Origin: Thermodesulfobacteriota bacterium
GTDB taxonomy: Bacteria; Desulfobacterota; Desulfobulbia; Desulfobulbales; JBFMBH01
Length of the DNA stretch: 64,000 nt
Reading direction: 5' to 3'
Assembly (NCBI GenBank): GCA_040755095.1
Contig: JBFMBH010000005.1
Coordinates: forward strand, 479-64,478
Shown here: one piece after another, positions 15,413 to 58,206 of the stretch
Layout: the number at the start of each line of letters is the position of its first letter
Position numbering within the stretch: the stretch's first letter is position 1
Notes under the pieces: generated by a model
Databases searched by the model: none
What the model saw: the letters and a program-made list of their open reading frames with translations, nothing else
What the model was told of the DNA's origin: nothing
Made by a program: the position numbers and the translations under genes

Positions 15413-15476
15413 GCCGCCCTCTCTTTGCGATCCTGCGTTGCCAGTCAACCCGCGCACGGCCAACGTGCCTGCGGCC

Positions 15477-17876: not shown

Positions 17877-17934
17877 GATTGCAGACCTCGCCTCGGAATG
17901 GTCGGCCTCTGGAGGTCGGGGAGCCCAGGGGGCC

Positions 17935-41838: not shown

Positions 41839-42939
41839 CTAGTCCTTGTTGGTATGACACTTGAAGCAGCCCGAGTCTGCAGCTGCGCCGGCATTGTGGG
41901 CGTTCATGGTGGCGTAGTCCCAGCGGAGCAGGTCGTCGAAGGATGTGCCGTGTGCCCGGTGGCAGGAGATGCAGGTGACGATGGCCTGGCCGGCCACCGC
42001 CGGATTGACCGCTGCGGCCAGGTTGACCACGCCCACCGGCGCCTCGGCGTTGTCGACGTACGCGGCGTACTCGGAGCCGGTGGCGTCGCTCAGGTCGAAG
42101 TCCACCGGATGCCGCAGCCAGGGCGCGCCGAAGGTGGAGTCAACGCCGGTGTTGCCGGTGCCGCTGTGGAAGTTGCCGTGGCACTCGGCGCACAGGAAGC
42201 TGATGGTGCTCTTGTCCACCGAGGCCAGCTCGTCGCTGATCCGGTCCTTGCCCTTGTACTTGTTGCGATCAACGCTGGTCTCGTTCTCCCAGTCGTTGTC
42301 CTCGACGCCGGTGATCCCCATCAGGAAGCGGAAGCTCTTGCCCACGGTGCTGCCGTCGAGGGTGGCATCATCGGCATGGTGGGCGCCGGAGATGTCCTGG
42401 AAGTCGTCCGCTGCCGCATGCTTGCCGTGGCAGCCATAGGAGCCGGCGCAGGTCAGCTGGCTGGCCCAGGAGGCGGCACCGCCCGCCACCTGCGAGCCGC
42501 CGGTGGGGGTGAAGGTGGCGTCGTTGCTCCAGCCGGGGGGCGTCAGGCCAAAGGCCGCGCCATCCTGGGTGGCGATCCCCTTGACGTTGTGGCCCTTCTT
42601 GTCGACATCACCCTGGGCGTCCGCCACCCAGTAGAAGTTGCCGCCGGCCAGCACGCTGGTCACCGGCGAGGGGGCAGCGTCGGTCTTCAGGACCAGGGGG
42701 ATGTTGCTGGAGCCGCCCAGGAGCGCCGTGCCGCTGTGGCAGCCGACGCAGTCGCCCCGGGTCAGGGCCCGTTGCGGGGTGTTTGTGCCGTCATTGGCCA
42801 TGCTGGCGCCGTTCTGGGAGTTGTGCATGGTGTGACAGTCCGAGCAGACGCCGGTGACCCGGGCCTCGGCATTCCCGCTCAAGCCGCAGAATGCCAGCGC
42901 GAAACCGAAGGCAACGATGGAACCATACAGCTTCTTCAT
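41839..42939 (-). CDS. OmcS-like hexahaem cytochrome c, paralogue 2
   Basis: Signal peptide MKKLYGSIVAFGFALAFCGLSGNAEA. Motifs CSDCHTMHNSQ, CVGCH, CAGSYGCH, CAECH, WLRHP, CISCHRAHG and C-terminal GCFKCHTNKD. GAAGGAG RBS before ATG 42939. Confidence 0.85.
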   Translation of the reverse strand: MKKLYGSIVAFGFALAFCGLSGNAEARVTGVCSDCHTMHNSQNGASMANDGTNTPQRALTRGDCVGCHSGTALLGGSSNIPLVLKTDAAPSPVTSVLAGGNFYWVADAQGDVDKKGHNVKGIATQDGAAFGLTPPGWSNDATFTPTGGSQVAGGAASWASQLTCAGSYGCHGKHAAADDFQDISGAHHADDATLDGSTVGKSFRFLMGITGVEDNDWENETSVDRNKYKGKDRISDELASVDKSTISFLCAECHGNFHSGTGNTGVDSTFGAPWLRHPVDFDLSDATGSEYAAYVDNAEAPVGVVNLAAAVNPAVAGQAIVTCISCHRAHGTSFDDLLRWDYATMNAHNAGAAADSGCFKCHTNKD

Positions 42940-43607
42940 GTCAGTGCTCCTTCTTCGAGAAGAGGTGTCGGTGATGCATGACCTGCGATGTTGTTGTTGG
43001 TAAGTCACATCCCTCCCTGTGGTCGCATTATGCTCATTTGGGCCTCATCCCGGTAATGAGCGTACTGTCCATCCCATAATGACCTCCTCATCCCCAAGAG
43101 TTGTCGTTGAGAGCACTCCTTGCTCCAATTATCTCAGATTCCGATCCCTCATTCCATAAGGCAAGTGCTGTATTCTTCTCTGAGCACCTGCTCATCATCC
43201 GTCAGCCGTCTGCTTTGCTGCTACGCGGATCAGTCACTCGGGCTCATGGCGTTGAAACCAGTCCTTGGAATCAGTGTATCATAGCTGCCAAGGGGATTGA
43301 ATGGGATAAGTGTTTATTTTTGCCTAAGCCCATGCTTAGCATGCAGTAAGCCCAGGTGATTTGGCGATGGGCAGTTTTTGGCCATTGTTCAATGTAAAGA
43401 AAACGGTATGGCTTCGGCAAGAGAGCATGTCTTCACCTCTGGCGGGCAGAAGATGAAGCGACTTGACAGATCCGGAGTGGGCGAAGGGGGGAGGAGCGGG
43501 GAATACCCCTCAGACAACGGCGCGTCCAGACGGACCTGGACGCTGCTTCAGGCCCGGTACCGCTTCGAGAAGGGCGAGCTTCTGAGAGGGCGAGGCAGGT
43601 GAAACGC
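42940..43607 (-). promoter_or_regulatory. Long, visibly A+T-enriched non-coding leader/promoter region upstream of OmcS-like gene 2
   Basis: 668 bp without a credible ORF, clearly lower in G+C than the flanks. Possible sigma70-like TTGCCG-N18-TACATT (minus strand, 43391-43420). Nested hairpin ATTAT...GCTCATT-N16-AATGAGC-ATAAT at about 43024-43080. Palindrome CTAAGC-ccat-GCTTAG at 43324-43339. Confidence 0.4.
43522..43543 (-). terminator. Possible terminator after the 12-haem cytochrome gene
   Basis: 8-bp stem GCGTCCAG-N6-CTGGACGC, followed on the minus strand by GCCGTTGTCTG (only a weakly U-rich tail). Confidence 0.4.
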
Positions 43608-44408
43608 CTACATCATCATGGCGTGGGGATCGATATGGCAGGAAAGGCAGTTGGTGGGGTTGGCAATGCTCTTGTCATGGGGATTGCCGTGGCAGGTCAG
43701 GCACTCCGGCAGCAGGTCCGGGCCGTGGCCGAAGCGGTGGCAGAACACGCAGATGAAGGCACCGTGCTTGGTCTTGTTGGTCCGCTGCAGCTCCAGCTGC
43801 TCCGGGTGACAGCCGCCACAGTACGTGGACGGGATGTCCGTTGACCAGGCCACATGGGTCGGCTCATGGGGCTGGTGGCAGCGTAGGCAGGCGCCGTAAT
43901 CCATGCCCTCCACATGGGCCTGGTGGCATTTGAGGCAGGTCTTGAAGGTGCGGTGCACCGGGTGGCAGAAGGAGCAGTCCACCTCGGCATGGGCGCTGGG
44001 GAATTCCTGCATGGCGTCCCCGGGGTAGGGGTGGCAGGACAGGCAGGCCGGCTTGTTGTCGCTATCCTCCCGGAAGGTGATGAGCAGGGGCCGGTGGGGA
44101 TCCTGGTGGCAGGTCAGACACTCGGCCCGGGCGGCGAAGTGCTTGTTGGCAGCGGGCTGGTGGCAACGGGAGCATGCGGGCACCGCGTTCGTGCCCCGGG
44201 GGGGGTGCTCCACGTGGCAGTCCAGGCAGGTGACCCGGGTGCGGTGGCGCTCGCCGTCCTCGAAGATCGCCTTCTGCTGGTCGGGATGGCACTTCTTGCA
44301 GTCGGCGTTGGTCAGGACAGGGGGCTGGGCCCCGGCCTCCAGCACGGCAACCAAGAGACTTGCTGCCAGCACGCCCGCGATACCTGCCCAATAACCTTTG
44401 CTGTCCAC
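43608..44408 (-). CDS. Dodecahaem cytochrome c (12 CxxCH in 266 aa; poly-c7/c3-like)
   Basis: GTG start after GGGAGG. N-terminal hydrophobic segment WAGIAGVLAASLLVAVLEAGA. Twelve CxxCH motifs spaced about 15-25 aa apart. Confidence 0.9.
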   Translation of the reverse strand: MDSKGYWAGIAGVLAASLLVAVLEAGAQPPVLTNADCKKCHPDQQKAIFEDGERHRTRVTCLDCHVEHPPRGTNAVPACSRCHQPAANKHFAARAECLTCHQDPHRPLLITFREDSDNKPACLSCHPYPGDAMQEFPSAHAEVDCSFCHPVHRTFKTCLKCHQAHVEGMDYGACLRCHQPHEPTHVAWSTDIPSTYCGGCHPEQLELQRTNKTKHGAFICVFCHRFGHGPDLLPECLTCHGNPHDKSIANPTNCLSCHIDPHAMMM

Positions 44409-44470: not shown

Positions 44471-45445
44471 CTACTTCTGATGGATCTCGAAAACCTGCAC
44501 GCGCTTGTTGAAGGTGTCAGCGACGATGACCCGGCCGTAGGCGTCCACGCAAACGTCGGACGGGTAGGCCAGCCACCCCCGTCCCGAGCCCTGGCCGCCG
44601 AACTCGAACAGATAGCGTCCCTTCAGGTCGTAGACGTTGACCCCATGCCGCAAATAGTCCGCCACGTAAATGCGGCCGGCCCGGTCGTCCACCGCCACCC
44701 CCCGGGCTCGGGCGAGCTTCCCTGACGAGCCACCCTTCTCGCCGAACCGGAACAGGAAGCGCTCCTCGGCGTCGTAGACATAGACCCTGCCCATGCCCTC
44801 ACTGAGGAGGTAGAGATTCCCTTCCCGGTCGGTGTCCAAGGCGATGATATCCGCCACCTGGCGGCCGCCCCGCACCGTGTCCGTGGGGGCGATGACGTGG
44901 AGAAACCGGCCCTCCCGGTCCAGGACCAGGGCACCCGGATAGTTGCTGCCAGCCATGATGAGGCGGCCTCGGGATCCTTCCACCAGATGGCGGGGGGAGA
45001 ATTCGCTGGCGCCCTCGAAGCCGTCCAGGGTCATTTCCCGCACCTTGATGAAGGCGCCGTCATAGACCTTGATCGCCGGCAGCTCGCCCTGGGCCAGAGG
45101 GCCCCGGCCGGCGTAGAGCAGGCCGTCACCGGTCACCAGCACCGCCGAGGCCCGCCCCAGCTCGCGCCCCTCTCCCAGGGTGAAGGTCGGAAAGTAGTCG
45201 GCTCCGGCATAGAGGGCGATCCGGCCGCCGGCCCCGGAATGCAGGACGTAGAGCTCCTCGGCCTTGCGGTCGTAATGGAGGACCGAGGTGTAGCCCAGGG
45301 CCATGCTGTTGGCATCCACCTCGAGGACCTTGATCACCGCCGTCTCCACATTGGCTGCCGTGGTGGCGGCGGCGCCGGCTGGCTGGGGCCAGAGCGTGGC
45401 CAGGAGCAGGATCAGGAGGAGGACAGGGCTCAGCATGGCGCCCAT
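44471..45445 (-). CDS. Secreted NHL-repeat six-bladed beta-propeller protein
   Basis: Signal peptide MGAMLSPVLLLILLLATLWPQPAGA. NHL units such as ARGVAVDDRAGRIYVADYLRHGVNVYD and YPSDVCVDAYGRVIVADTFNKRVQVFE. No SD-like sequence before either candidate ATG (45445 or 45436). Confidence 0.85.
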   Translation of the reverse strand: MGAMLSPVLLLILLLATLWPQPAGAAATTAANVETAVIKVLEVDANSMALGYTSVLHYDRKAEELYVLHSGAGGRIALYAGADYFPTFTLGEGRELGRASAVLVTGDGLLYAGRGPLAQGELPAIKVYDGAFIKVREMTLDGFEGASEFSPRHLVEGSRGRLIMAGSNYPGALVLDREGRFLHVIAPTDTVRGGRQVADIIALDTDREGNLYLLSEGMGRVYVYDAEERFLFRFGEKGGSSGKLARARGVAVDDRAGRIYVADYLRHGVNVYDLKGRYLFEFGGQGSGRGWLAYPSDVCVDAYGRVIVADTFNKRVQVFEIHQK

Positions 45446-45565: not shown

Positions 45566-46675
45566 CTAGTCCTTGTTGGTGTGGCAGCGGAAGCAGCCGG
45601 TGTCGCTGTTGGCGCCGCCGCCGCCGGCGATCATGTTGTCGTAGTTCCAGCGTAGGAGGTCCGCGTTGTCGGAGCCGTGGGCCCGGTGGCAAGAGATGCA
45701 CAGCACGATGCCGTCCGCCGGAGTGGCGGGAAGGGCAGCGGTGCCGCGGGTCGTGGCGCTCAACGGCGCGCCTACCGGAACTTCCTCGTCATAGGCGTTG
45801 GTGCCCGCCGTGCCGTAGGAGGCATAGGAATCCCAGGCCTGGGAGGCGTTGCCGAGCCGGAAATCGGTGGGATGACGCAGCCAGGGAGTGCCCCCGGGGT
45901 CAGCCTGGCGGGTGGTGTTCAGGTTGGTGTTGGCCGAGGCGCCGACGCTGTGGAACAGGCCATGGCATTCGCCGCACAGGTAGCTGATGGTGGTGGTGTC
46001 CTCGTAGCCGGTGATGGTGCCGGATCCCACGGTGGCGCTGTTGCCGTTGATGCCGTCGTAGGCATTGCCGTCCGTGTCGCCGAAGCCCTTGTAGCTGGCC
46101 GAGGACTCCGTGCCGTCGATGCCCGCCAGCAGCCGGAAGCCGACCGCGGTGTCGTTGTGGTGACCGCCGGCGATGGCCACGGTCTCGTTGGCGTAGCTGT
46201 GGTTGCCGTGGCAGCCGAAAGAGCCGGCGCAGGTCAGCCGGTTGGTGCCCCAGCCGGCGGCGTTGGCGGGCAGGCCTGCAGCCACCGCCATGTAACCGGG
46301 TGGGGTATTGGCCAGCACGCCGTCCTGGGCGCCGGTACCGTTGACGTTGTGCTTGGTGTTGTCGGCGTTGGCGCTGTTGATGTAGCCGCCGGGCAGGACT
46401 GTGGCGGTCGAAGCGGCGTCACCCCAGATCGCCGGCGCATCGACGCTGGTCAGCCGGTCGGCGGCGTTGTCCTGCTTGTGGCAGCCGGCACAGGTGTCAA
46501 TGGTGAGCGAGTCGTTGGTGGCGGTGGTGTTGCCCATCACCGTGCCGTTCTGGCTGTTGTGCATGGTGTGGCAGTTGGCGCAGGGGCCGGTGACCTTGGC
46601 ATCGGCGCTGCCACCCAGGCCAGCCAGCACAGCGGCCGCACCGACCGCAATCAGGGTGCCGTACAGCTTCTTCAT
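45566..46675 (-). CDS. OmcS-like hexahaem cytochrome c, paralogue 3
   Basis: Signal peptide MKKLYGTLIAVGAAAVLAGLGGSADA. Motifs CANCHTMHNSQ, CAGCH, CAGSFGCH, CGECH, WLRHP, CISCHRAHGS and C-terminal GCFRCHTNKD. AAGGAGG RBS before ATG 46675. Confidence 0.85.
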   Translation of the reverse strand: MKKLYGTLIAVGAAAVLAGLGGSADAKVTGPCANCHTMHNSQNGTVMGNTTATNDSLTIDTCAGCHKQDNAADRLTSVDAPAIWGDAASTATVLPGGYINSANADNTKHNVNGTGAQDGVLANTPPGYMAVAAGLPANAAGWGTNRLTCAGSFGCHGNHSYANETVAIAGGHHNDTAVGFRLLAGIDGTESSASYKGFGDTDGNAYDGINGNSATVGSGTITGYEDTTTISYLCGECHGLFHSVGASANTNLNTTRQADPGGTPWLRHPTDFRLGNASQAWDSYASYGTAGTNAYDEEVPVGAPLSATTRGTAALPATPADGIVLCISCHRAHGSDNADLLRWNYDNMIAGGGGANSDTGCFRCHTNKD

Positions 46676-46938: not shown

Positions 46939-47091
46939 CGCCAGGGCTGGCTTGCGCACTGCATTTCGCGGTAGCCGGACCGGGGCAAATATGGTAAGGG
47001 AATGCCCGGATCCAAGGCCCCGGGCCGGTTTTGGCGTCAGGCCAGGGGGGCGACAGCCGAGCGGCCACTCGCTGCTCACAAGGAGATCTCG

Positions 47092-49254
47092 TTGAAGTCC
47101 AGACAGACCTCGGTTGTCGGCCTTCTCGCCATGCTGGGGGCGGCATGCGGGCTTGGCGTTTCCTGGCGCCAGGCCGGGGCCGGGCCGGTGGCCATCAACG
47201 CCACCCTGGACTACTCCGAGACGCGGGGGGACAGGGACAATGACAACGCCTTCCGCCAGACCTTCCAGGTGAGCCTGGCGGATGATATCGCCGTCACCGA
47301 TACCGTAAGCCTCACCCCGGGCTTCCGGCTCAACAACGACTCCAGCGGCGAGCGCAGTGGCGCCTACGCCATCGACCCCAACCTGGGGCTGGCCATGAAT
47401 ACCGACCTGTTCAGCATGAACGGGTCGTACTCCACGACCACCCGCAAGTCCTCGGGGGATCAGCCCAAGACCTTCTCCCAGGCCTGGGACGTCACCTGGG
47501 CCAGCCGCTGGGACCAGCCCTGGCCCTCCTTCCCGGTGCCGGTGCCCTCGGTGCGCGTCGCCTACGGCGGCAACACCACCGAATCCGGGGACGACCTGAC
47601 CGGCCGCAGCTCCTTTGTCACCGGCACGGTGACCGAGGAGTACGACATCTCCATCTTCCAGCTCGCCTACCGCTTTTCCCGGAACATGAACTGGGACGAG
47701 ATCGACGAGATCACCGGCACCAACGACACCCATGATTTCAGTGTCGACGCCAGCGACCGCTATCTGGACGACCGGGTGCAGCTGTCCATGAGCCACCAGA
47801 CCACCCTGGACCGCCGGGTCACCGAATTCAAGGGCGGGGCCGGCAAGGTGATCGAGGAGGGCTTCACGTTGTCGGAGGACGCCTTTGCGGGGCAGGACCC
47901 TCGACCCGCAGAGGAAAATATCTTCATGGACCTCAGCCTCGCCAACGGGCTCGTGAACAGGACGCTCACGGATCGGGTCGTGAACATTCGAGCGGGGGTC
48001 GATACCCCTGGCGCCATTAGCGGGGAGGAGTTCTGGAATATCCTCGTGGAGGTGCCAGCGGCGTTACAGGAGGTCTCCCGCATCTCTCTCTGGCTGGCCG
48101 AGGAGCTTGCGCTGGAGCCGGAAGGTCTGGACACGGAAGGCGACTACAGCTTTGACGTCTACGGGGGCATGACCCAGAATGGTCCCTTCCACCGGCTGAC
48201 GGGGGCGGATGGGCTCGGCGTGTATCAGTCAGGCGTTTTCCCGTCGGCCGGCGGCCTGCCGTTGGGGGGAGGGCTGCGGCCCCGTTTCCTGATCGACCTG
48301 CCCGCTGGGGCGTGGAATGGGGAGAACTTCCTCAAGGTGGTGTGCCGGATTGAGAAGCCAGTCTCCGTGGCGGCCTGGATCAGCGAGGTGACGCTTTCCC
48401 ATGTGCGCACCCTCACCACCGACGACGAGAAGGACGTCAATATCAGCAACACCTACAAGACCGGTCTGACCATGAACGTCGTCCCGGCCATGGACTGGCG
48501 CTTCTCCACCGGCCTGGTGCACACCCTGCGGGAAAGCTCGCCCGGGGGCGAGCGCACGGACCTGACCCACAACATGAACCTGTACTGGACCCCCAACCGT
48601 TATTTCCGGCCAGTGACGGCGTTCAACCGCAGTATCTCCTCGGGGGACGAAGAGGATACCCTGGAGAACCGCTCCTACAGCATGCGGGTGGCCTCCATGC
48701 CCCTGGATGCCCTGTCCACCTCCCTGGGCTTCACCCGCACCGAGGGCTACACCAACCAGGCCCTGGAGACCATCGGGGATGCCCTGTTTCTGAGCCTGGA
48801 CTCCCAGATCCTCCCCGATTTGTCCGCCAGCCTGGCCGCTTCCTCCACCAAGACGACCAACCGGGTCAGCGGTGCCACGGCCTCGGCCATGCAGGTGGAT
48901 CTGACCGGCAACATGCGGGTGACGCCCCGGCTCACGGCGGACGCCACCCTGGAATTCAGCGAGGCGGACGAGGAGCCCTTCGGCTATGGCGCTGCCCTGT
49001 CCTGGCGGCCGACGGATGTTCTGGCCTGCACCTTGGACTACGAAGGGGGCAACGAAAGCACCATCACCTTGTCTCCGGCCGTGCGGCTGAGCCGGGAGCT
49101 GCAGCTGACCGGCTCATTCGTCCACAGTGACGAGGACGATCTGTTGTCCGTGCAGTCCAAATGGCTGCTCAACGAGCTCATGACCCTGGACCTCCGCTAC
49201 CGGTGGCGGGAGGAGGAATGGGCCTGGAACGTGCGCTTGACAGCAGGCCTGTGA
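47092..49254 (+). CDS. Putative outer-membrane beta-barrel protein with a large inserted soluble domain
   Basis: TTG 47092 lies 6 nt after AAGGAG. Signal peptide KSRQTSVVGLLAMLGAACGLGVSW. Both ends are rich in short alternating polar/hydrophobic strands with Asn/Asp/Gly/Ser turns (LDYSETRGDRDNDNAFRQTFQVSL...; ...LTGSFVHSDEDDLLSVQSKWLLNELMTLDLRYRW). No family recognised by eye. Confidence 0.6.
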   Translation: MKSRQTSVVGLLAMLGAACGLGVSWRQAGAGPVAINATLDYSETRGDRDNDNAFRQTFQVSLADDIAVTDTVSLTPGFRLNNDSSGERSGAYAIDPNLGLAMNTDLFSMNGSYSTTTRKSSGDQPKTFSQAWDVTWASRWDQPWPSFPVPVPSVRVAYGGNTTESGDDLTGRSSFVTGTVTEEYDISIFQLAYRFSRNMNWDEIDEITGTNDTHDFSVDASDRYLDDRVQLSMSHQTTLDRRVTEFKGGAGKVIEEGFTLSEDAFAGQDPRPAEENIFMDLSLANGLVNRTLTDRVVNIRAGVDTPGAISGEEFWNILVEVPAALQEVSRISLWLAEELALEPEGLDTEGDYSFDVYGGMTQNGPFHRLTGADGLGVYQSGVFPSAGGLPLGGGLRPRFLIDLPAGAWNGENFLKVVCRIEKPVSVAAWISEVTLSHVRTLTTDDEKDVNISNTYKTGLTMNVVPAMDWRFSTGLVHTLRESSPGGERTDLTHNMNLYWTPNRYFRPVTAFNRSISSGDEEDTLENRSYSMRVASMPLDALSTSLGFTRTEGYTNQALETIGDALFLSLDSQILPDLSASLAASSTKTTNRVSGATASAMQVDLTGNMRVTPRLTADATLEFSEADEEPFGYGAALSWRPTDVLACTLDYEGGNESTITLSPAVRLSRELQLTGSFVHSDEDDLLSVQSKWLLNELMTLDLRYRWREEEWAWNVRLTAGL

Positions 49255-49408: not shown

Positions 49409-50041
49409 ATGGCTGGCTGGTGGCCGATCCGGCGGCAGGTGCGGAAGGCGGGCGGCAGGGGATGGCAGGGGGCCGTGGCGGCTCGCCTGGGGGGACTTCT
49501 GCTGGTGGTCCTGGTGGCCGGTTGCAGCTCCCATGCCCTGACCTATTATGTCCGGGAGGGCGCTGACCTGACCTTCATCAAGAAGGTGGCGGTCATGCCC
49601 CTGGCCAACAACACCAAGGAGAAGTTTGCCGCCGACCGGGTGCGCAACATCGTGCTGACCCAGGTTCTGGTGGACAGCCTGTTCGACGTCACCGAGACTG
49701 GCCAGCTGGAGAAGATCCTGGAGGAGGAGGCCGGCAAGGCGGATGCGCCTCTGGATGAGGCCCTGGCCCGCCGGCTCGGCAAGCGGTTGTCCGTACAGGC
49801 GTTTCTCCTGGGATCGGTGGATGCCTACGACGAGGAGCGCAAGGGCAACTACTCGTATCCCGTCGTTGCCATGACCTTGAAGCTGGTGGATGCCGAGACC
49901 GGTCTCATTCTGTGGCAGGCCAGCGGCTCTTACAGCGGCTACAGCAGCTGGAGCCGCATCCTCGGCACCCAGGGCAGGGATCAGTCGGCGGTGACCTTTC
50001 GTCTCGTGCGGTCGCTTCTGGCCAGTCTCAGCGGCGACTAG
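49409..50041 (+). CDS. Lipoprotein, PelC/CsgG-N/LpoB/DUF799-like alpha/beta fold, paralogue 1
   Basis: Lipobox LVAGC. KKVAVMPLANNT...DSLFDVTE...LGKRLSVQAFLLGSVDAY...VAMTLKLVDAETGLILWQA. Confidence 0.7.
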   Translation: MAGWWPIRRQVRKAGGRGWQGAVAARLGGLLLVVLVAGCSSHALTYYVREGADLTFIKKVAVMPLANNTKEKFAADRVRNIVLTQVLVDSLFDVTETGQLEKILEEEAGKADAPLDEALARRLGKRLSVQAFLLGSVDAYDEERKGNYSYPVVAMTLKLVDAETGLILWQASGSYSGYSSWSRILGTQGRDQSAVTFRLVRSLLASLSGD

Positions 50042-50098
50042 TCTGGCCTTCGCTCCGTGAGGACGCATCGTCCAGCAGGCCTGCCGTCCCACCGCCTC

Positions 50099-51640
50099 AT
50101 GAGCCTCGGCTTCTCCCCCGGTGCCTGGCCCCGCCTCCTGATCCTCCTCTTCCTGCTGGGCCTCCTGCCGGCAGCCCCGGCGCCGGCCGGTGCCGCCAGC
50201 GGCAAGGTGGCGCTTCTGCCCTTCGACGATCTGTCCCGGGGCGCCAATTCGGTGGACCTGGAGATGACCACCCAGGTCGCCGATCTCCTGACGGTGTCCG
50301 GAATCAACGTGGTGGATGCCCAGGCGGTGCGGGCGTATCTCGCGACCAACCGCGTGCGCCACACCGGGATGATCGATCTCTTCAACACCATGGGCATGCG
50401 GGAGGCCCTGGGTGTGGACTGGATCCTTACCGGCACGGTGACCCACCGCCGCCCCGAGCCGCAGCCGGCCCTGGGCCTGTCCCTTCTCCTGGTGGACGCC
50501 CACACCGGCAAGGCCGTCTGGGCCTGGAACGAGAGCCTGGCCGCCACCGAGCTGGTGAAACCCCTGGGAATCGACGCTGTCACCAGTCTGGCCGCGATCA
50601 CCGATCTGGTCCTGGCCCGGGTGCCGTTCCAGTTTCCGGAGCCCGGCGAAGCCCTGGTGGACCTGCCCATTCCGCCATACTCGGTGGAGAGCTTCGATCT
50701 GAGCTCCCGGTTCGTCGCCGGCAATGGCCGGATGGAGTGCCGGGTGGGCTTCCGTTTTGATGAGGAGCCGCCCACCGACGTCTTCCTGAAGCTGGGGGGC
50801 AAGCGCATCAGTCTGGTGTCCATGGCCAAGGAGAGCGGCACCTACTGGGCGAGCTGGCAGGCGCCGGAGGCAGAGGGGCGCTATTCGGTCGCCACGGTTC
50901 TGCGGTGGAAAGGCCGGCGGGAGGAGTCCAAGTTCCTGGCCTCCTACCGGGTGGTGAACGAGCCGCCGACCGTGTCCCTGCGCTTCGGCAACGGCGTGCC
51001 CCTGGGGGATTCCGGCGTCATCGCCTTCCGCTCCTTCCTGAGCATCAGCCCGGTCGTCAACAAGACCGCTCCCGTGGCTTCGTTCCGCATCCAGATCGAA
51101 GACCCGAAGACCGGCGCCTTCCTCATGGACTTCAAAAGCATCGAGAGCCTGCCCGAAGCCATGGTCTGGCGCGGTGCCGGTGATCAGGGGCCTCTGGGCT
51201 CCGGCTACTACCGGCTCATCCTCACCGTCACCGATGTCATGGGCAACGAGATCGCGGATTCGGCGGAGCTGTACCTGGGCAAGAATCAGCCCCGGGTGCT
51301 GCCCGCCATGGAGCGTCTCGAAGACGGGAGGGTTCAGCTCCACCTCATGGCGGTCCCCGATCCCCAGACCGGCGAGATGGAGCCGGTGCCGGTGAAGTAC
51401 TGGCAGCTGCGGGTCACGGATCGGGAGCGCAACTTCCTTCTGGAAGAGGAGGGAGAGACGCTGCCGGCCACCGTCACGCTGGATCCCGGCGCCGAGACGG
51501 TCTTTCTGGTCTCCTACCTGGTGCGGGATGTCCTGGGCAACGAGCGCCACGCCCGCAGCGAGACCGTGGAGCTGCCCGTTACCGGCGGCGGCGAGGACCA
51601 AGACAAGAAGGAGACCGATGTCTGGCATGAGGAGTTCTAG
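50099..51640 (+). CDS. Secreted protein: the same alpha/beta fold (paralogue 2) + three Ig-like/FlgD-Ig-like beta-sandwich domains
   Basis: Signal peptide ...LLILLFLLGLLPAAPAPAGA. GKVALLPFDDLS...GINVVD...LGVDWILTGTVTH...LSLLLVDAHTGKAVWAW. Later MVWRGAGDQGPLGSGYYRLILTVTDVMGNE (FlgD-Ig-like). Confidence 0.7.
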   Translation: MSLGFSPGAWPRLLILLFLLGLLPAAPAPAGAASGKVALLPFDDLSRGANSVDLEMTTQVADLLTVSGINVVDAQAVRAYLATNRVRHTGMIDLFNTMGMREALGVDWILTGTVTHRRPEPQPALGLSLLLVDAHTGKAVWAWNESLAATELVKPLGIDAVTSLAAITDLVLARVPFQFPEPGEALVDLPIPPYSVESFDLSSRFVAGNGRMECRVGFRFDEEPPTDVFLKLGGKRISLVSMAKESGTYWASWQAPEAEGRYSVATVLRWKGRREESKFLASYRVVNEPPTVSLRFGNGVPLGDSGVIAFRSFLSISPVVNKTAPVASFRIQIEDPKTGAFLMDFKSIESLPEAMVWRGAGDQGPLGSGYYRLILTVTDVMGNEIADSAELYLGKNQPRVLPAMERLEDGRVQLHLMAVPDPQTGEMEPVPVKYWQLRVTDRERNFLLEEEGETLPATVTLDPGAETVFLVSYLVRDVLGNERHARSETVELPVTGGGEDQDKKETDVWHEEF

Positions 51641-52304
51641 TTCGGCCAGCACCGGCTGCTGGCCGCCCGGGTCGAAAAGCCGCTCCGGGGGGACCCCTGG
51701 CGGTTCGCATCCAGGTCGGGTACACTGGCTCGTCACCGTTCTTCTGGCGTGTCTCGCCGCCGGCTGCGGCAAGGCCCAGCACAGTCTGGGCCTGGTGGCC
51801 GCGGGGGGGGAGGGGATCTGCCGGGTGGCGGTGCTGCCCTTCCGGGACCAGGGCAAGGTGCCCTTTGGCGGGCACGTGGTCCAGCGGACGTTCACCGCGG
51901 AGCTCATCGCCAGCGGCCGCTTCGATGTAGCCCTGGAGGGTGAGGTGCTGGCCTTTTTCCGGGAGAACCGGCAGCTGCCCCAGGCGACCCTGTCCCGGGA
52001 CTTCTACATCAAGATGGGCCAGACCATGGGCGTGGACGCCATCGTGGCGGGCACGGTGCTCGGCATGAGCGAAGGCTCCGAGGGCCGGGATATGGTGGTG
52101 CCAGAGGTGGCCTTCTCCCTGGAGCTGATCCGGATCCGGGATGGCAAGCCCCTGGTGGTGACCCACCACCACCGTGCCGGGGATGAGTATCGATGGCTCA
52201 TGCACGTCGGGGTGGTGCAGACCATTTCGGAGCTGGTGAGCCGGATGAGCAAGGAGGCGATCGAGGAATGGCGTATCTTGGGCTTCGAGGGTTGTCGGTT
52301 GTGA
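51618..52304 (+). CDS. Lipoprotein, same alpha/beta fold, paralogue 3
   Basis: Lipobox CLAAGC. CRVAVLPFRDQG...SGRFDVAL...MGVDAIVAGTVLGM...AFSLELIRIRDGKPLV. AAGGAG RBS; the start overlaps the upstream stop by 23 nt. Confidence 0.7.
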   Translation: MSGMRSSSSASTGCWPPGSKSRSGGTPGGSHPGRVHWLVTVLLACLAAGCGKAQHSLGLVAAGGEGICRVAVLPFRDQGKVPFGGHVVQRTFTAELIASGRFDVALEGEVLAFFRENRQLPQATLSRDFYIKMGQTMGVDAIVAGTVLGMSEGSEGRDMVVPEVAFSLELIRIRDGKPLVVTHHHRAGDEYRWLMHVGVVQTISELVSRMSKEAIEEWRILGFEGCRL

Positions 52305-53992
52305 AGCGGGCCAGCTTGCTGGGCCTCGTGACGGTGCTGGTGCTCTGGGGCTCCCTGGCACAGGCGGTGTGGCCCTTCGGGGAACGGCACCTCCTGGTTC
52401 TCAATGGCGCCGGGCACAGCAAGGCGGATTTTCTGCAATTCTGGGAGCAGTGGAAGGAAGAGGACAGCCCGGTTCCCGACAGCCCGGATTTCTGGATCGA
52501 CTGGCTGCTGTTTTATCAGGAGGCCGAGCAGATGGAGCTGGGCGATGCCCCGGCGGTGCAGGCCAAGCTGTTCACCTTCCTCAAGGTGCGGGCCCTCATG
52601 CAGCTGCGCCAGGACGAGGTGACCAGCAGGATGGCCGCCGTCGATGAGGAGCGCCTCTGGCAGCGCTATTTGCAGGACGAGGCGCCCCTGTACAAGATCG
52701 AGAGCGTGCTCATCGCCGACCAGGCGGCTGCTGGCCGCTTCGCTGAGCTGGCGCGGGCTGGCCGCCCGTTCGCCGAGGTCGTCACCGATCCCAGCCTCGG
52801 CCTGGCCGAGCCGCCCAAGGTGATCTCGTCGGACTGGCTGCGGAAGAGCAAGGTGCCCGAGACCTACCGGGAGGATCTGGCGAAGGCCGAGCTCGGCTCC
52901 GTGCTCGGTCCCCTGTTCTGGGAGCCCAAGAAGACCTACTACCTGGTGCGGAAGGTAGAGCAGCAGGCTGGCAGCCAAGAGGACTTCCAGAGGATCCGCA
53001 AGGACATCGAGGAGCGGCTCTTCAAGGAGGAGGACGGCCGCCTGACCAGAGACCTCCTGGTCCGTCTGATGAAGGAGTACGAGGTGGTGACCCACGACGA
53101 CCGGATCGAAGCCCTGCCCATGAACGGCGGCTCCCAGGAGCAGCTGAGCGCCGTGGTGGTGGAGATGAAGGGCGGCAGGACGGTCACCGGCGGTGAGCTC
53201 GTGCAGATGGTGATGCGGGATCTGTCCATGCGGATGCGGCCCAATGCCCAGGGCTCTTTCGACATGGTGCATGGCGATTTCAATGACGCCAAGCGCCGGG
53301 TGCTCATGGATTACCTGGGGGCGGAGCTGACGGTTCGGGCCGCCCTGGACCGTCACTATGAGCAGAAGCCGCCCATCAAGGATGTGTTCGATTTTTACCG
53401 CCAGCGGCGCATGATCCTCGAGCTGAAGAACCGGCTGTTCCGCACCCAGGTGGAGGTCAGCGACCAGGAGGCCCAGGCCTTCTACCAGGCCAACCAGCAG
53501 CTGTTCACCCACCCCGCCTCCCTGGAGCTCGCCATCCTGAGCACCCGGGACGAGAAGCTGGCCGATTTCCTGCGCAAGGAGCTTCTCTCGGGCAAGGATT
53601 TCTTCGAGGTGGCCAACCATGTGGTGGCCGGCGGGGTGAATCCGACCAATGTGCTGGTGAGCGATCTCGATCCGGCGATGGTCGAGGCCCTGTCCGGAGT
53701 GGCCGAGGGGGCGCAGGTGGGCCCGGTGAAGATCGGCGAGGATACCCACTTCATCAAGCTTATCCGCCGGCGGGAGTCGGTGGTGCGGCCCTTGGACGAA
53801 GTCAAGCACATGATCACCAGGAAGCTGCACGAGGAGCGGATCCAGGAGAAGGAGGAGGCCTTTCGGCAGAAGCTGCGGGCGGTCTCCAAGATCGAGGTGG
53901 ATGACGGCCAGTGGCAGGAGGTGGTCCGCACCCTGAAGGCCCAGGAGGCGGCCCGGCAACAGGAGAAGGACAAGCCGGCAAAGGGCAGTTGA
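52301..53992 (+). CDS. SurA/PpiD-like periplasmic chaperone with parvulin-type peptidyl-prolyl isomerase domain
   Basis: GTG 52301 overlaps the upstream stop (GTGA); the alternative is ATG 52268. Signal peptide VKRASLLGLVTVLVLWGSLAQA. C-terminal rotamase-like ...FFEVANHV...VSDLDPAMVEALSGVAEGAQVGPVKIGEDTHFIKLIRRR. Confidence 0.75.
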   Translation: MKRASLLGLVTVLVLWGSLAQAVWPFGERHLLVLNGAGHSKADFLQFWEQWKEEDSPVPDSPDFWIDWLLFYQEAEQMELGDAPAVQAKLFTFLKVRALMQLRQDEVTSRMAAVDEERLWQRYLQDEAPLYKIESVLIADQAAAGRFAELARAGRPFAEVVTDPSLGLAEPPKVISSDWLRKSKVPETYREDLAKAELGSVLGPLFWEPKKTYYLVRKVEQQAGSQEDFQRIRKDIEERLFKEEDGRLTRDLLVRLMKEYEVVTHDDRIEALPMNGGSQEQLSAVVVEMKGGRTVTGGELVQMVMRDLSMRMRPNAQGSFDMVHGDFNDAKRRVLMDYLGAELTVRAALDRHYEQKPPIKDVFDFYRQRRMILELKNRLFRTQVEVSDQEAQAFYQANQQLFTHPASLELAILSTRDEKLADFLRKELLSGKDFFEVANHVVAGGVNPTNVLVSDLDPAMVEALSGVAEGAQVGPVKIGEDTHFIKLIRRRESVVRPLDEVKHMITRKLHEERIQEKEEAFRQKLRAVSKIEVDDGQWQEVVRTLKAQEAARQQEKDKPAKGS

Positions 53993-54098: not shown

Positions 54099-56123
54099 AT
54101 GATGCAGGAGACACGCCAAGTGGGCAATGGCAGTCGGATGGGGCTCTTGGGGAGACAGGGAACGGTGTGGCTGTTGACCGCCGCGCTGCTCCTGGGGCTG
54201 GCCGCCTGCGTGCCCCAGCCGTCCGAGTCGTCCCGATCTGCCGGCAAGGCCAAGAAGAGCTGCGTGGAGTGCCACGAGACCGAGTACAAGGCCTTCCAGA
54301 CCGGGGTGGTGCACAAACCGGTACAGGAGGCCAAATGCGACGGCTGCCATGACCCCCACGGCATGATCGGCGGCACCTTGCTCAAAGCGGATGAGCCGGA
54401 GCTGTGCTATTCCTGCCACGCTGCCGTCCGCCAGGCGGTCCAGGGGGCGGCTCACGGCCATCCGCCGCTCCAGAGCACGACGGCCGCCTGCACCAGCTGC
54501 CATGCTGTCCACAACTCCCCCCATGCCAAGCTCCTCAAGGAGCCGGCCGCTACCTTGTGCTTCAAGTGTCACGATCAGACGGAGTTCGGCCGCACCAACC
54601 GTCACCAGCCGCTGCAAACCGGGTGTGCCTCATGCCACCAGGTGCATGGCGCCCCGGCAGCCAAGCTGCTGCCCAAGGAGCCGGACGCCTTCTGCCAGGA
54701 CTGCCACCAGCCGGACGGCAAGGGGATGGAGGCAGGCCACCGGGGGTACCCCGTGCAGGGGGGCTGCGTCTCTTGCCATCAGCCCCACTCGGCCAGTCGC
54801 GCCAAGCTGATCCGGGAGGTCCCGCACCAGCCGATGCTGGAGGGGCAGTGCGAGTCCTGCCATGCCGGCAAGGGCAAGCCCGAGCCACTCGCCCTGACCG
54901 GCACGGGCAGCAGCCTGTGCCGCGGCTGCCATGACGATGTGACCGCCGGTCAGACCCAGAGCGTCCATGCACCGGTCACCGGGGGCGAGTGTCTCTCCTG
55001 CCACGCCCCCCACGGCAGCAACCACCAGGCCATGTCCCGTCAGGCCCCGGAAAGGCTGTGCTTCGAGTGCCATACCTTCAAGCAGATCGGGCCGGAGAAG
55101 ACAGGGCAGACCGAGAACGGCCACCAGCCGGCTGCCGAAGGCCGGTGCCTGACCTGCCACGCGGCCCACGCCGCACCGGTCAAGCCGCTGCTCAAGAGCC
55201 CTGCCGCCGACCTGTGCTTCTCCTGCCATGGCAAGGAGCCGGGGTTGGCCGACCGGAGCCACCAGCCGGTGAAGGAGCGGCGCTGCACCTTGTGCCACTC
55301 GCCCCACGAGTCCCAGGGCAGCCATCTTCTGGCGGGAAGCGAGCAGGAGATCTGCCTGACCTGTCACAAGAAGACCGGGGACGATATGACCCTGGCCTAT
55401 CTCCATCATCCCTTTGCCAACGGCGATTGCACCGGCTGCCACGCCGCCCACGGCTCCAGAAGCGCCGGCATGCTCAAGGCCAGCGGCGTTGCCCTGTGCG
55501 CCTCCTGCCACCAGAAGCTCATCGAGGAGCGGACGGCCAATATGAAGAAGCATCAGCCCTTTGCCCAGGGCGAGTGCATGAAGTGCCACGCCCCCCATGG
55601 CTCGGACAACCCCTTCACCCTGGTGCACAAGCTGGCGGACACCTGCTTCACCTGTCACAGCGGCCTGGAGCGCCAGATCGGCTCGGCCCGGCAGGTCCAT
55701 GAACCGGTGGTCAAGCGGAACTGCACCGCCTGTCATACGCCGCATGCCTCGGCCCAGGACCACCTGATCACCCGGGCGATGCCCGAGCTGTGCCTGGCCT
55801 GCCACAAGGAGGTGGCGGAATTCTGGAGCGGCGGCTTCGCGCATGAGCCGGCGGTCTCCGGGCAGTGCGCCAGCTGCCACGTCAGCCATGCCGGCGCCGA
55901 GGCCAAGCTGCTGGCCCGCAGCGCCTCAGGTCTGTGCGCCACCTGCCATCAGATCAGTGATACGGAGATGGTGCGGATCCACAAGGGGATCCGGCCGTCG
56001 GAAAAGAGCTGCACCAGCTGCCACGACAGCCATGGCTCTCCCACCCAGAGCCTGACCTTTGCGGTGGAGCATGCCCCCTTCAAGGAGCGGGACTGCAAAC
56101 CATGCCACGAGGAGGCGAAGTGA
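54099..56123 (+). CDS. Lipoprotein multihaem cytochrome c with 26 CxxCH motifs
   Basis: Lipobox LLGLAAC. Twenty-six CxxCH motifs counted, in a paired arrangement (C..CH.[PV]H......L.......LC..CH). The start may be ATG 54138. Confidence 0.9.
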   Translation: MMQETRQVGNGSRMGLLGRQGTVWLLTAALLLGLAACVPQPSESSRSAGKAKKSCVECHETEYKAFQTGVVHKPVQEAKCDGCHDPHGMIGGTLLKADEPELCYSCHAAVRQAVQGAAHGHPPLQSTTAACTSCHAVHNSPHAKLLKEPAATLCFKCHDQTEFGRTNRHQPLQTGCASCHQVHGAPAAKLLPKEPDAFCQDCHQPDGKGMEAGHRGYPVQGGCVSCHQPHSASRAKLIREVPHQPMLEGQCESCHAGKGKPEPLALTGTGSSLCRGCHDDVTAGQTQSVHAPVTGGECLSCHAPHGSNHQAMSRQAPERLCFECHTFKQIGPEKTGQTENGHQPAAEGRCLTCHAAHAAPVKPLLKSPAADLCFSCHGKEPGLADRSHQPVKERRCTLCHSPHESQGSHLLAGSEQEICLTCHKKTGDDMTLAYLHHPFANGDCTGCHAAHGSRSAGMLKASGVALCASCHQKLIEERTANMKKHQPFAQGECMKCHAPHGSDNPFTLVHKLADTCFTCHSGLERQIGSARQVHEPVVKRNCTACHTPHASAQDHLITRAMPELCLACHKEVAEFWSGGFAHEPAVSGQCASCHVSHAGAEAKLLARSASGLCATCHQISDTEMVRIHKGIRPSEKSCTSCHDSHGSPTQSLTFAVEHAPFKERDCKPCHEEAK

Positions 56124-57307
56124 TGCGCGGCTTTTTCCTGATCGTCGTGATGGCGGCCGGCCTCGGCTTCACCCTCGCCGAGGCCCAGGCCGCCCGGACC
56201 AACTGCACGGCCTGCCACGACCCCGAGAGCTTCGCTGGCCGGGTGGTGCATGGCCCGGTGGCGGAGAAGAAATGCTTTTCCTGCCACAGCCCCCACGCCT
56301 CCCGCCATGAAGCCCTGCTCTATGGCAAATCCCCGGAGCTGTGCTTCAGCTGCCACAAGGATATCGACGAGGGGCTGAAGAAGCAGGAGATGCTGCACGG
56401 CCCGGTCCGGCAGGGCAAGTGCGCCGACTGCCACCTGCCGCATGCGGGCAAGGACGATGCCCTGCTCAAGGCCGGGGTACCGGAGTTGTGCTTCGGCTGC
56501 CACAAGGAGGTGGCCGGCCGGGGTGCCCGGCATACCCATGCGCCGTTTGCCCGGGGCCAGTGTCAGGCCTGCCACGTGGCCCACGGCTCCAGCACGGTCG
56601 CCCTGCTCAAGGCCGGGGTGCCGGGGCTGTGCCTGGGCTGCCACAAGGACGAAGGCGCGATCCGCGGCAAGCATTTGGGACGGGCCCTGGCGGGGATGGA
56701 CTGCCTCACCTGCCACAGCGGCCACGGCTCGGACCACAACGCCCTGGTGCGCAACAACCTCCACCCGCCGTTCAAAGACAAGGACTGCGGCACCTGCCAC
56801 AACCGTACCGACAAAGGGGTGGCCCTGTGCTTCGACTGCCACGAAGGCATCCAGAGCTCCTTCAACTACACCCACAACCACATGATGTCGGTGTCCGGGG
56901 TGGACAACATCTGTCTGTCCTGCCACAACGCCCATGCAGCGGACGACAAGAAGATGCTGGCCGGCACCCAGTACGGTGTCTGCAAGCGCTGTCACGCCGA
57001 CACCTTCAAGCGCCGGGAGGGGGCGTTGCACACCCATCCCAACTGGGGGGTCTGCACCAATTGCCATCAGGCCCACGGCTCCAACCAGATCGCCCTCATC
57101 CGGGGGGATGGCAATGGCACCTGTGAGCAGTGCCATGCCACCCAGGGCAAGTTTGTCCACCCCATCGGCGACAAGGTCCGGGATCCCCGTTCCGGCCAAC
57201 CGGTGACCTGTGTCACCTGCCACAATGTCCATGGCACCGCCTTCAAGTACAACCTCCGCCTGTCGGGGGAGAAGGACCTCTGTGTCCAGTGCCACAAGAG
57301 CTACTAG
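56123..57307 (+). CDS. Periplasmic/secreted multihaem cytochrome c with 16 CxxCH motifs
   Basis: Signal peptide MRGFFLIVVMAAGLGFTLAEAQA. Sixteen CxxCH motifs counted. Its ATG overlaps the upstream stop (TGATG). Confidence 0.9.
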   Translation: MRGFFLIVVMAAGLGFTLAEAQAARTNCTACHDPESFAGRVVHGPVAEKKCFSCHSPHASRHEALLYGKSPELCFSCHKDIDEGLKKQEMLHGPVRQGKCADCHLPHAGKDDALLKAGVPELCFGCHKEVAGRGARHTHAPFARGQCQACHVAHGSSTVALLKAGVPGLCLGCHKDEGAIRGKHLGRALAGMDCLTCHSGHGSDHNALVRNNLHPPFKDKDCGTCHNRTDKGVALCFDCHEGIQSSFNYTHNHMMSVSGVDNICLSCHNAHAADDKKMLAGTQYGVCKRCHADTFKRREGALHTHPNWGVCTNCHQAHGSNQIALIRGDGNGTCEQCHATQGKFVHPIGDKVRDPRSGQPVTCVTCHNVHGTAFKYNLRLSGEKDLCVQCHKSY

Positions 57308-57330: not shown

Positions 57331-58206
57331 ATGAAGAGGACGCTCGCAGCCGCCCTGATGGCGGTCATCCTGGTCGCCGCGCCAGCGGCAGCCGATCGTT
57401 CCCCGTGGAAATGGGACAAGGCCCTGACCGGCGATGACGCCGGGGTGCATCTGCTCAGGCCGGCCAGCCTGTTCTGGGATGCGGCCGAGGAGCGCTACTA
57501 CGTGGTGGACACCATGAACTCCCGGCTTGCCTCCTACGATCGGGAGGGGGTCTTCCTCAAGCAGCTCCGGGCGGGCGGTCAGCTCGGGCTGCCGGTATCC
57601 ATGGGCCGGGATCCCCGGGGCGGGATCTGGGTGGTGGATCGCAAGCTCAATGCCCTGCAGTACGTGGATCTCAAGGCCCAGAAGGTGGAGGCCAAGACGG
57701 TCAAGTACAAGGACGGGGCAACGGTGTTCCTGGACCGGCTGTTCGTGGACCCGGCGGGCACCATCTACGTTCTGGACCGGAGCCGGGGGGGGGTTCTGCG
57801 CCTGGGCCCCGATCTGAGCGTGACCACAGAGCTCCGGGGCGAGGAGAAGGCCGCTTTCGTGGACTTCAAGGTGAGGAGTGACGGCGTCTGGGCCCTGGAC
57901 CAGAGAAACCGTGCGCTGGTGGTTTTTGGCGCCGACGGCTCGGTGTCCCGGAAGATCGGTCTGAAGGGGGATCTGGAGTTTCCGGTCTCCTTCGATGTCG
58001 ACGAGCACGGGCTCATCTACGTTCTGGACCGGCACGCCGGCGCCATTCGGGTCTTCGACCGTGGCGGCGAATTCCGCTACGGCTTCCTGGAGGTGGGCAG
58101 CGCCCGGGGCCAGCTCTATTTCCCCTCTCAGCTGCTGTTCGACGGCCTGGGCCGCCTGTGCGTGGCCAACGAGGGCAACGGCCGGGTGGATATTTACCGG
58201 CGCTAA
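57331..58206 (+). CDS. Secreted NHL-repeat beta-propeller protein
   Basis: AGGAAGGAG RBS. Signal peptide MKRTLAAALMAVILVAAPAAA. NHL-like units such as FPVSFDVDEHGLIYVLDRHAGAIRVFD and FPSQLLFDGLGRLCVANEGNGRVDIY. Confidence 0.85.
   Translation: MKRTLAAALMAVILVAAPAAADRSPWKWDKALTGDDAGVHLLRPASLFWDAAEERYYVVDTMNSRLASYDREGVFLKQLRAGGQLGLPVSMGRDPRGGIWVVDRKLNALQYVDLKAQKVEAKTVKYKDGATVFLDRLFVDPAGTIYVLDRSRGGVLRLGPDLSVTTELRGEEKAAFVDFKVRSDGVWALDQRNRALVVFGADGSVSRKIGLKGDLEFPVSFDVDEHGLIYVLDRHAGAIRVFDRGGEFRYGFLEVGSARGQLYFPSQLLFDGLGRLCVANEGNGRVDIYRR

Follow-up and report, generated by a model that had tools for sequence, protein, structure and literature searches.

Three diverged PelC/LpoB-like paralogues at the core of an osc-type cytochrome gene cluster in a Thermodesulfobacteriota bacterium

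A 64,000-nucleotide stretch of the genome of a Thermodesulfobacteriota bacterium (order Desulfobulbales; contig JBFMBH010000005.1; G+C ~67%), here called the window, contains three tandem genes that encode paralogues of one small alpha/beta module. We refer to these genes and their products as E, F and G, to the gene upstream as D and to the four genes downstream as H, I, J and K; all positions are those of the 64-kb window. Together with D and H-K the trio forms a block of eight genes, D-E-F-G-H-I-J-K, of which it is the core. The genomic context that explains it, which had been missed by an initial annotation made from the sequence alone, is an osc-type cluster beside genes for OmcS-family cytochromes. 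The system as such is thus an osc-type nanowire assembly cluster, a kind already known since 2025. We consider it likely that E, F and G are the outer-membrane-proximal parts of osc-type machinery for exporting OmcS-family hexahaem cytochromes and building extracellular filaments from them, most probably by means of a mixed ring on D.

One module in three paralogues

The three open reading frames (ORFs) of the trio lie on the same strand at the positions first assigned to them (Table 1). The lipoboxes of E and G are present across the loci compared. F has an A-x-A type (signal peptidase I) signal peptide and, as the initial annotation had noted, no lipobox, and the same is true of its orthologues. 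From the ATG at 50099 F is 513 amino acids (aa) long, and from the GTG at 50057, which is the NCBI call, 527 aa. The likely start of G is the ATG at 51627, inside an ORF of 51528-52304; this gives 225 aa, the NCBI length. Gene spacing is tight, and is seen to be so again in other loci of the block. The translational coupling that had been suggested for the set is consistent with the overlaps between F and G (14 nucleotides, nt) and between G and H (~37 nt), but not with the distances of 15-57 nt between E and F and 154 nt between D and E. A scan for promoters and terminators gave no signal above the shuffled expectation.

Pairwise comparisons of E, F and G each span a module of ~150 residues. 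BLASTP E values were 1e-12 for E and G, 1e-5 for F and G, and 3e-3 for E and F; the corresponding values from hhalign with profiles of orthologues were 4e-20 (99.3%), 1.6e-17 (98.9%) and 2e-9 (96.2%). This similarity is far beyond chance and supports the original proposal that the three are paralogues of one alpha/beta module. The N-terminal motif put forward as common to them, [KR]VA[VL][LM]P[LF].[DN], is matched exactly in all three (KVAVMPLAN, KVALLPFDD and RVAVLPFRD). Two further motifs proposed with it proved approximate, in that E reads LSVQA against [LM]GV[DQ]A and the hairpin of G ends in LV instead of [VL]W.

When the modules of seven loci were placed in a neighbour-joining tree, they formed three clades, each with one member per genome and with the same internal branching, and the E, F and G modules of Malonomonas fell into the same three clades. 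Given this pattern of single members and congruent branching, the triplication is ancient, that is, older than the split between Desulfobulbia, Thermodesulfobacteria and Desulfuromonadales, and the genes are not recent tandem copies. The clades also carry motifs of their own. Directly after the last strand, members of the G clade have [YH][HN]x[RK]xGx[ED][YF][RQ]xx[ML]H[FVI]G, which reads THHHRAGDEYRWLMHVG in G of the window, and at the same position the E clade has an invariant ILWQASG. Since these motifs differ at an equivalent position, each paralogue is, as judged from the alignments, specialised at one site. The His-rich patch to which attention had been drawn in G, VVTHHHRAGDEY, is present, but its description went too far, as the clade does not conserve the triple His. 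F of the window ends in an acidic tail closing with W..[ED]F. All F orthologues have such an acidic tail, of low confidence, with an invariant W...F (W509 and F513; WHEEF, WTDGF, WLEEF); this could be a short docking motif.

With respect to known families, E scored above the Pfam cut-offs for both LpoB (PF13036; 35.1 bits, cut-off 22.3) and CsgG (PF03783; 25.6 bits, cut-off 20.8), the CsgG match being limited to profile positions 34-148 of 210. F and G gave only sub-threshold Pfam matches (LpoB, CsgG, TolB_N, GNA1162), with LpoB scores of 13.7 for F and 17.0 for G. The threshold for GNA1162/DUF799 (PF05643) was not reached, E scoring 21.2 against a cut-off of 25.9 and F 11.5. On the LpoB equivalog model TIGR02722, E obtained 35.2 bits where the cut-off is 110.55. 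With an equivalog score so far under its cut-off, the profile evidence suggests that the trio proteins share the LpoB domain family but are not LpoB.

These scores bear on the idea that E, F and G are generic envelope factors, either LpoB-like activators of peptidoglycan synthases or Tol-Pal/TolB-like proteins, which happen to lie among cytochrome genes by chance. The Pfam LpoB match of E is in its favour, as is the name 'TolB-like protein' given to one homologue by the Joint Genome Institute (JGI). Such a role is hardly conceivable, given the equivalog score and the lack of a TolB propeller, and it is effectively refuted by synteny, the trio being linked to the block of cytochrome and peptidyl-prolyl isomerase (PPIase) genes in each locus examined.

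An AlphaFold model of G (predicted local confidence, pLDDT, 80.4, with a core >90; predicted template-modelling score, pTM, 0.73) consists of a beta-alpha-beta-alpha-alpha-beta3 module followed by C-terminal helices. When this model was compared with the PDB by Foldseek, the top match was GNA1162 (4HRV, 3.6e-9). PelC followed with 5T0Z (1.9e-8; template-modelling score, TM, normalised to the target 0.65-0.72) and also 5T10 and 5T11, and the PelBC outer-membrane transporter 9H80 was among the matches. Together with the lipoboxes of E and G, these matches point to a PelC-type alpha/beta fold in outer-membrane lipoproteins. FlgT (3W1E), which stood at ranks 7 and 9, and the LPHT ring 8Z5N were found as well, along with CT253, LpoB (4Q6Z) and TolB N-domains; CsgG matched weakly (TM 0.37-0.47, root-mean-square deviation 8-12 A). 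The search therefore recovered every member of the fold class that had been named beforehand (PelC, CsgG, LpoB, GNA1162/DUF799 and TolB-N), in agreement with the Pfam scores of E. The model of F was weaker (mean pLDDT 64.6, pTM 0.42), the underlying alignment comprising three sequences. It places the module at residues ~35-175 and three all-beta blocks at ~194-285, 292-393 and 400-491, and its Foldseek matches in the PDB were tandem arrays of immunoglobulin (Ig), FN3 and macroglobulin domains. The three Ig-like domains ascribed to F are thus borne out with moderate confidence.

The osc-type block and its cytochromes

The block adjoins a gene for an OmcS-family hexahaem cytochrome, which is divergent from D, and G is followed by a PPIase (H), two large multihaem cytochromes (I and J) and a beta-propeller protein (K). 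H likely starts at 52268, within the end of G, and would then have ~575 aa, the full ORF having 599. When used alone, the hexahaem sequence matched OmcS in the PDB at E=0.23 only. A profile of 34 members of its family matched OmcS (6EF8) at 7.7e-18 over residues 8-348, and on the strength of this profile we assign the protein to the OmcS family. Both hexahaems of the window (Table 1) have five CxxCH and, where OmcS has CSSCH, one CxGxxGCH (CX5CH). As C149, A150, G151, G154, C155 and H156 are invariant in 34/34 aligned members, the non-canonical third haem site seems to define this branch of the OmcS family.

The order D-E-F-G-PPIase(-cytochrome-cytochrome-NHL) is repeated in L001, L002/L003, L004, L006 and L008, all from metagenome-assembled genomes (MAGs) of Desulfobulbia or Desulfobia. 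The block is also found in Thermosulfuriphilus ammonigenes (L011), a cultured organism whose genome is complete, where it is again divergent from two hexahaems, and in Malonomonas (L014/L015), of the order Desulfuromonadales; the Desulfuromonas loci L010 and L012 end before the D-H part. Pairing of the block with a hexahaem gene was seen in L002, L011, L015 and L017 as well. For each block protein of the window the best BLAST match was its positional counterpart. Against Malonomonas the values were 4e-25 for D, 1e-49 for E, 6e-40 for F, 1e-28 for G, 6e-82 for H, 3e-167 for I, 7e-125 for J and 5e-65 for K; E matched its Thermosulfuriphilus counterpart at 2e-55, and H matched a second counterpart at 1.5e-85. 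The Malonomonas counterparts of I and J likewise have 26 and 16 haems, and the I counterpart of L017 also has 26 CxxCH.

An exhaustive profile search for relatives of F returned 1659 proteins at a threshold of E<=1e-3; 661 remained at 1e-10 and 104 at 1e-30. Most were full-length, with 480-540 aa. Word-indexed searches were misleading in this respect, since they picked up no more than 3 F and 6 G relatives. Sources of F relatives that could be named were Thiovibrio, Malonomonas, Desulfuromonas, Desulfuromonadaceae and Thermodesulfobacteriota MAGs. No Geobacter was found among 30 representatives of the F family looked up by name, nor among the best 120 matches of the hexahaem search, and a profile scan of genome contigs with the E alignment gave three Desulfobulbia loci only and no Geobacter. 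The form of the trio in which the middle paralogue bears Ig-like domains is widespread in Thermodesulfobacteriota and Desulfuromonadales.

In Geobacter sulfurreducens, the osc (omcS-companion) cluster, described in 2025 (Shen et al., Cell Chem Biol 32:239) and treated also in PMC13194489 and bioRxiv 10.1101/2025.11.06.686851, builds conductive cytochrome nanowires; omcS, omcT and oscC belong to the osc operon (PMC13194489). Supplementary Fig S3 of the latter work gives OscH as 548 aa, OscI as 627 aa with df=675, OscJ as '16 hemes in LT' strain and OscK as 260 aa and beta-rich (PMC13194489). If df=675 is read as 26 x 26 haem pairs, OscI would have 26 haems. H (~575 aa), I (26 CxxCH), J (16 CxxCH) and K (an NHL propeller) resemble these four proteins in type, size and haem number, and are their equivalents. 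The same figure lists OscD with 473 aa, OscE with 701 aa and ~50 strands averaging 10.6 residues, and OscF and OscG as alpha/beta proteins of 169 and 367 aa (PMC13194489 Fig S3). D, at 750 aa and all-beta, is comparable to OscE, and mature E, at ~172 aa, to OscF; overall, both loci have a block of eight genes, lipoprotein genes included, beside an OmcS-like hexahaem. We noted that the OscE entry in the figure assigns 75.7% of the protein to helix and 1% to sheet, although it counts 2 helices (3.5 residues) and ~50 strands, so that the labels are evidently swapped, and that the OscD entry is all coil at 0.5% confidence (PMC13194489).

A variant osc-like cluster, at 3639-9982 of L017 and 2685-9028 of L018, connects the two layouts. 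Its order is hexahaem, NHL protein, a 523-aa propeller lipoprotein, a 753-aa protein, two small E-like lipoproteins, a 345-aa lipoprotein, PPIase, a 26-haem cytochrome and a 16-haem cytochrome, which fits the published sizes of the Geobacter proteins better than does the layout of the window. In L017 the 753-aa protein aligns with D as a full-length homologue (hhalign 99%, 7.8e-18). The 345-aa lipoprotein consists of two tandem modules, the first of which is sister to the F clade while the second falls on the E/G side of the tree; in L017 this two-module protein also has a faint Pfam match to FlgO. About 10 more two-module proteins, of 320-390 aa, were among the matches to the F profile.

Because this variant bridges the window and Geobacter layouts, it suggests how the letters correspond. 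The best mapping is D as OscE-like, E as OscF-like and F plus G as OscG-like; D is the probable equivalent of OscE and E that of OscF, and the 367-aa OscG would have two modules. A collinear mapping (D as OscD, E as OscE and so on) was rejected, since the sizes in Fig S3 put the 701-aa beta protein second. It also conflicts with the layout of L017 and with annotations in Geobacter, where GSU2497, one of the OscE/F/G genes GSU2497-2499, is annotated 'lipoprotein' and the gene beside GSU2501, formerly GSU2500 and re-annotated GSU3586, 'YVTN family beta-propeller'.

A possible collar beneath D

Where members of the fold class have been characterised, they work as a ring or collar on the inner side of the outer membrane, as PelC does under PelB (9H80), and likewise CsgG and FlgT. 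E and G are tethered by their lipids to the outer membrane, and F is soluble in the periplasm, extending its three Ig-like domains. Most probably the three would make up a collar or ring of mixed (hetero-oligomeric) composition that sits against D from the periplasmic side, resembling the PelC ring under the PelB barrel. H, the PpiC chaperone, would hand cytochrome subunits to this collar, which would pass on or template the hexahaem subunits, and the periplasmic cytochromes I and J, with their 26 and 16 haems, and the NHL propeller K would serve the same filament. In an abstract by Shen et al., OscEFG are reportedly 'channel-like' and OscD 'beta-propeller-like', and OscG and OscH are said to interact with OmcS.

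The comparison with PelC and PelB (5T0Z, 5T10/5T11, 9H80) rests on the shared alpha/beta fold and on lipoproteins that are encoded beside a large outer-membrane beta protein. PelC differs in that it is the product of one gene, forms a homo-dodecamer and works in polysaccharide export, whereas the window has three diverged paralogues, one of them soluble and bearing Ig-like domains, with a haem protein as the presumed cargo. D is not significantly similar to PelB (Pfam PelB_C, E=0.14). The flanking genes that were scanned include no glycosyltransferase genes, and there is no pel context: the trio lies among genes for cytochromes and a PPIase. GNA1162/DUF799, represented by 4HRV, is the best structural match of G and is weakly matched by E and F in Pfam, although the score of E is below the cut-off and the genomic context is another one. 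FlgT, of the flagellar H/T ring of Vibrio, in which FlgP and FlgO act with it, resembles F in being a soluble periplasmic protein with a TolB-N-like domain followed by beta-sandwich domains, and it joins ring assemblies round a filament that crosses the outer membrane. It has no sequence-level kinship with the trio, however, and no flagellar genes are present. CsgG and LpoB belong to the same Pfam-level superfamily, but LpoB is set apart by its equivalog cut-off, and the mature E and G, at ~170-185 aa, are too small for the transmembrane hairpins of CsgG. Given this size, the partial CsgG match of E and the low TM of G, we do not regard the trio as a CsgG channel.

D has a single N-terminal hydrophobic segment, and its beta periodicity exceeds its alpha periodicity in a scan that is crude and weakly informative; the C-terminal residue is F or Y in 6/7 of the orthologues examined. 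Residues ~290-470 are a poorly conserved insert between barrel-like N- and C-terminal parts, with a recurring W..V...RF.L...Y.K.VV.D.P and no match in Pfam or the PDB.

These outer-membrane-protein features of D would also suit a porin-cytochrome-style conduit, in which D is the porin sheath, I and J are the haem wire, and E, F and G are only structural lipoproteins that stabilise or position it and not a channel for export or assembly. I and J are always encoded with D-G, in keeping with this idea, and L001 is without a cytochrome gene upstream of D. A conduit is nonetheless distinctly unlikely. In the literature the Geobacter block is credited with roles in nanowire folding, secretion and morphology, and the handling of cargo better explains why the block has a PpiC chaperone of its own and is constantly paired with an OmcS-family hexahaem. 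Moreover, modules of the PelC, CsgG and FlgT class belong, as far as we are aware, to export and assembly scaffolds; we know of none from electron conduits.

If E, F and G do act in export and assembly, they need not act together. They could instead be separate or partly redundant, each forming a homo-oligomeric ring of its own like the PelC dodecamer, or serving different cytochrome paralogues, with no hetero-complex. Indeed, PelC and CsgG, relatives with solved structures, form homo-oligomers, the window contains two hexahaem paralogues, and the number of modules varies with the type of cluster. Conservation argues in the other direction: one E, one F and one G are strictly kept per genome in congruent clades across several orders, with clade-specific invariant motifs at an equivalent structural position. 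F is anchored differently from E and G, and genes of the trio overlap. In addition, F-like and E/G-like modules occur naturally fused in single lipoproteins of 320-390 aa, a Rosetta-stone arrangement. Since copy number, anchoring and fusion all point the same way, comparison of the sequences favours a hetero-complex over redundancy, as the initial annotation had also suggested, and we consider separate rings very improbable.

Several observations weigh against the export-and-assembly reading with its mixed ring. We infer the ring itself, that is, the physical association of E, F and G, its geometry and stoichiometry, the partnership with D and the direction in which cargo moves; the net charges of the three proteins are not complementary in any consistent way. 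D matches nothing in Pfam or the PDB, which bears on its nature as a barrel. The Geobacter block appears to start with the beta-propeller OscD and the window has no propeller there, and where the window has F, with its three Ig-like domains, and G, Geobacter seems to have one alpha/beta OscG of 367 aa. The fit of size and secondary structure is accordingly good for D and E, but is not one-to-one for F and G. Finally, orthology with Geobacter is drawn from synteny, sizes, haem counts and the bridging loci.

A more detailed version of the mixed ring can be envisaged. In it, E, F and G would be present in fixed ratio as a PelC-like collar under the D barrel, each with its own task at one shared loop position. 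The His/Arg motif of the G clade (YH.R.G.EYR..MH.G) would briefly hold the haem, or the His ligand between subunits, of an OmcS-type subunit, which would thus stay unpolymerised until it is outside, and the Ig domains of F would reach into the periplasm and collect cargo from the PPIase. A redox filament would then have an outer-membrane route of its own for secretion and polymerisation, mechanistically apart from type II secretion, curli and Pel. In all its particulars this version is tentative and, on balance, unlikely.

Neighbouring genes and implications

The genes of the block and those around it are listed in Table 1.

Table 1. Position and description of the block genes and neighbouring features in the window
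Feature	Position	Strand	Description
D	47002-49254	+	750-aa secreted all-beta protein; probable beta-barrel of the outer membrane, variable in its central insert
E	49409-50041	+	210 aa; outer-membrane-type lipoprotein; lipobox LVAGC; single PelC/LpoB-like alpha/beta module; ILWQASG signature
F	50057-51640	+	Signal peptide; alpha/beta module and three Ig/FN3-like beta-sandwich blocks
G	51627-52304	+	225-aa lipoprotein; lipobox LAAGC; single alpha/beta module and C-terminal helices
H	52193-53992	+	PpiC-type peptidyl-prolyl isomerase/chaperone; Pfam Rotamase_2 8e-17
I	54099-56123	+	674-aa cytochrome, 26 CxxCH
J	56102-57307	+	401-aa cytochrome, 16 CxxCH
K	57331-58206	+	NHL-repeat beta-propeller; Pfam NHL 9e-10
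OmcS-family hexahaem cytochrome	45566-46675	-	Divergent from D; 5 CxxCH and 1 CX5CH; presumed cargo or filament subunit
NHL propeller	44471-45445	-	Between the two hexahaem genes
12-haem cytochrome	43608-44408	-	Between the two hexahaem genes
Second OmcS-family hexahaem	41839-43008	-	42% identical to the first
Putative lipoprotein	40270-41718	+	482 aa; no Pfam match; flanks the second hexahaem
Five-haem cytochrome	38720-39904	-	Insert like FN3/purple-acid-phosphatase-N; flanks the second hexahaem
NHL/InlB-B-repeat protein	15477-18116	-	879 aa; adjoins the 2617-aa ORF
Large ORF	7610-15463	-	2617 aa; 13 CxxCH in the first ~700 residues; GEVED domain

Of the genes that flank the second hexahaem, the five-haem cytochrome has no kinship with the OmcS family by BLAST. 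Further away, the 2617-aa ORF and its 879-aa neighbour may be a second, unrelated extracellular cytochrome system.

How a cytochrome with six haems is moved over the outer membrane and polymerised into a conductive filament is poorly understood, and it is this question that the trio touches. The lipoprotein part of the osc system would be made up of three copies of the PelC/GNA1162/LpoB fold that diverged long ago. With PelB-PelC as a solved analogue, and with the natural fusions between modules, this gives a concrete and testable model, namely a mixed collar under a barrel.

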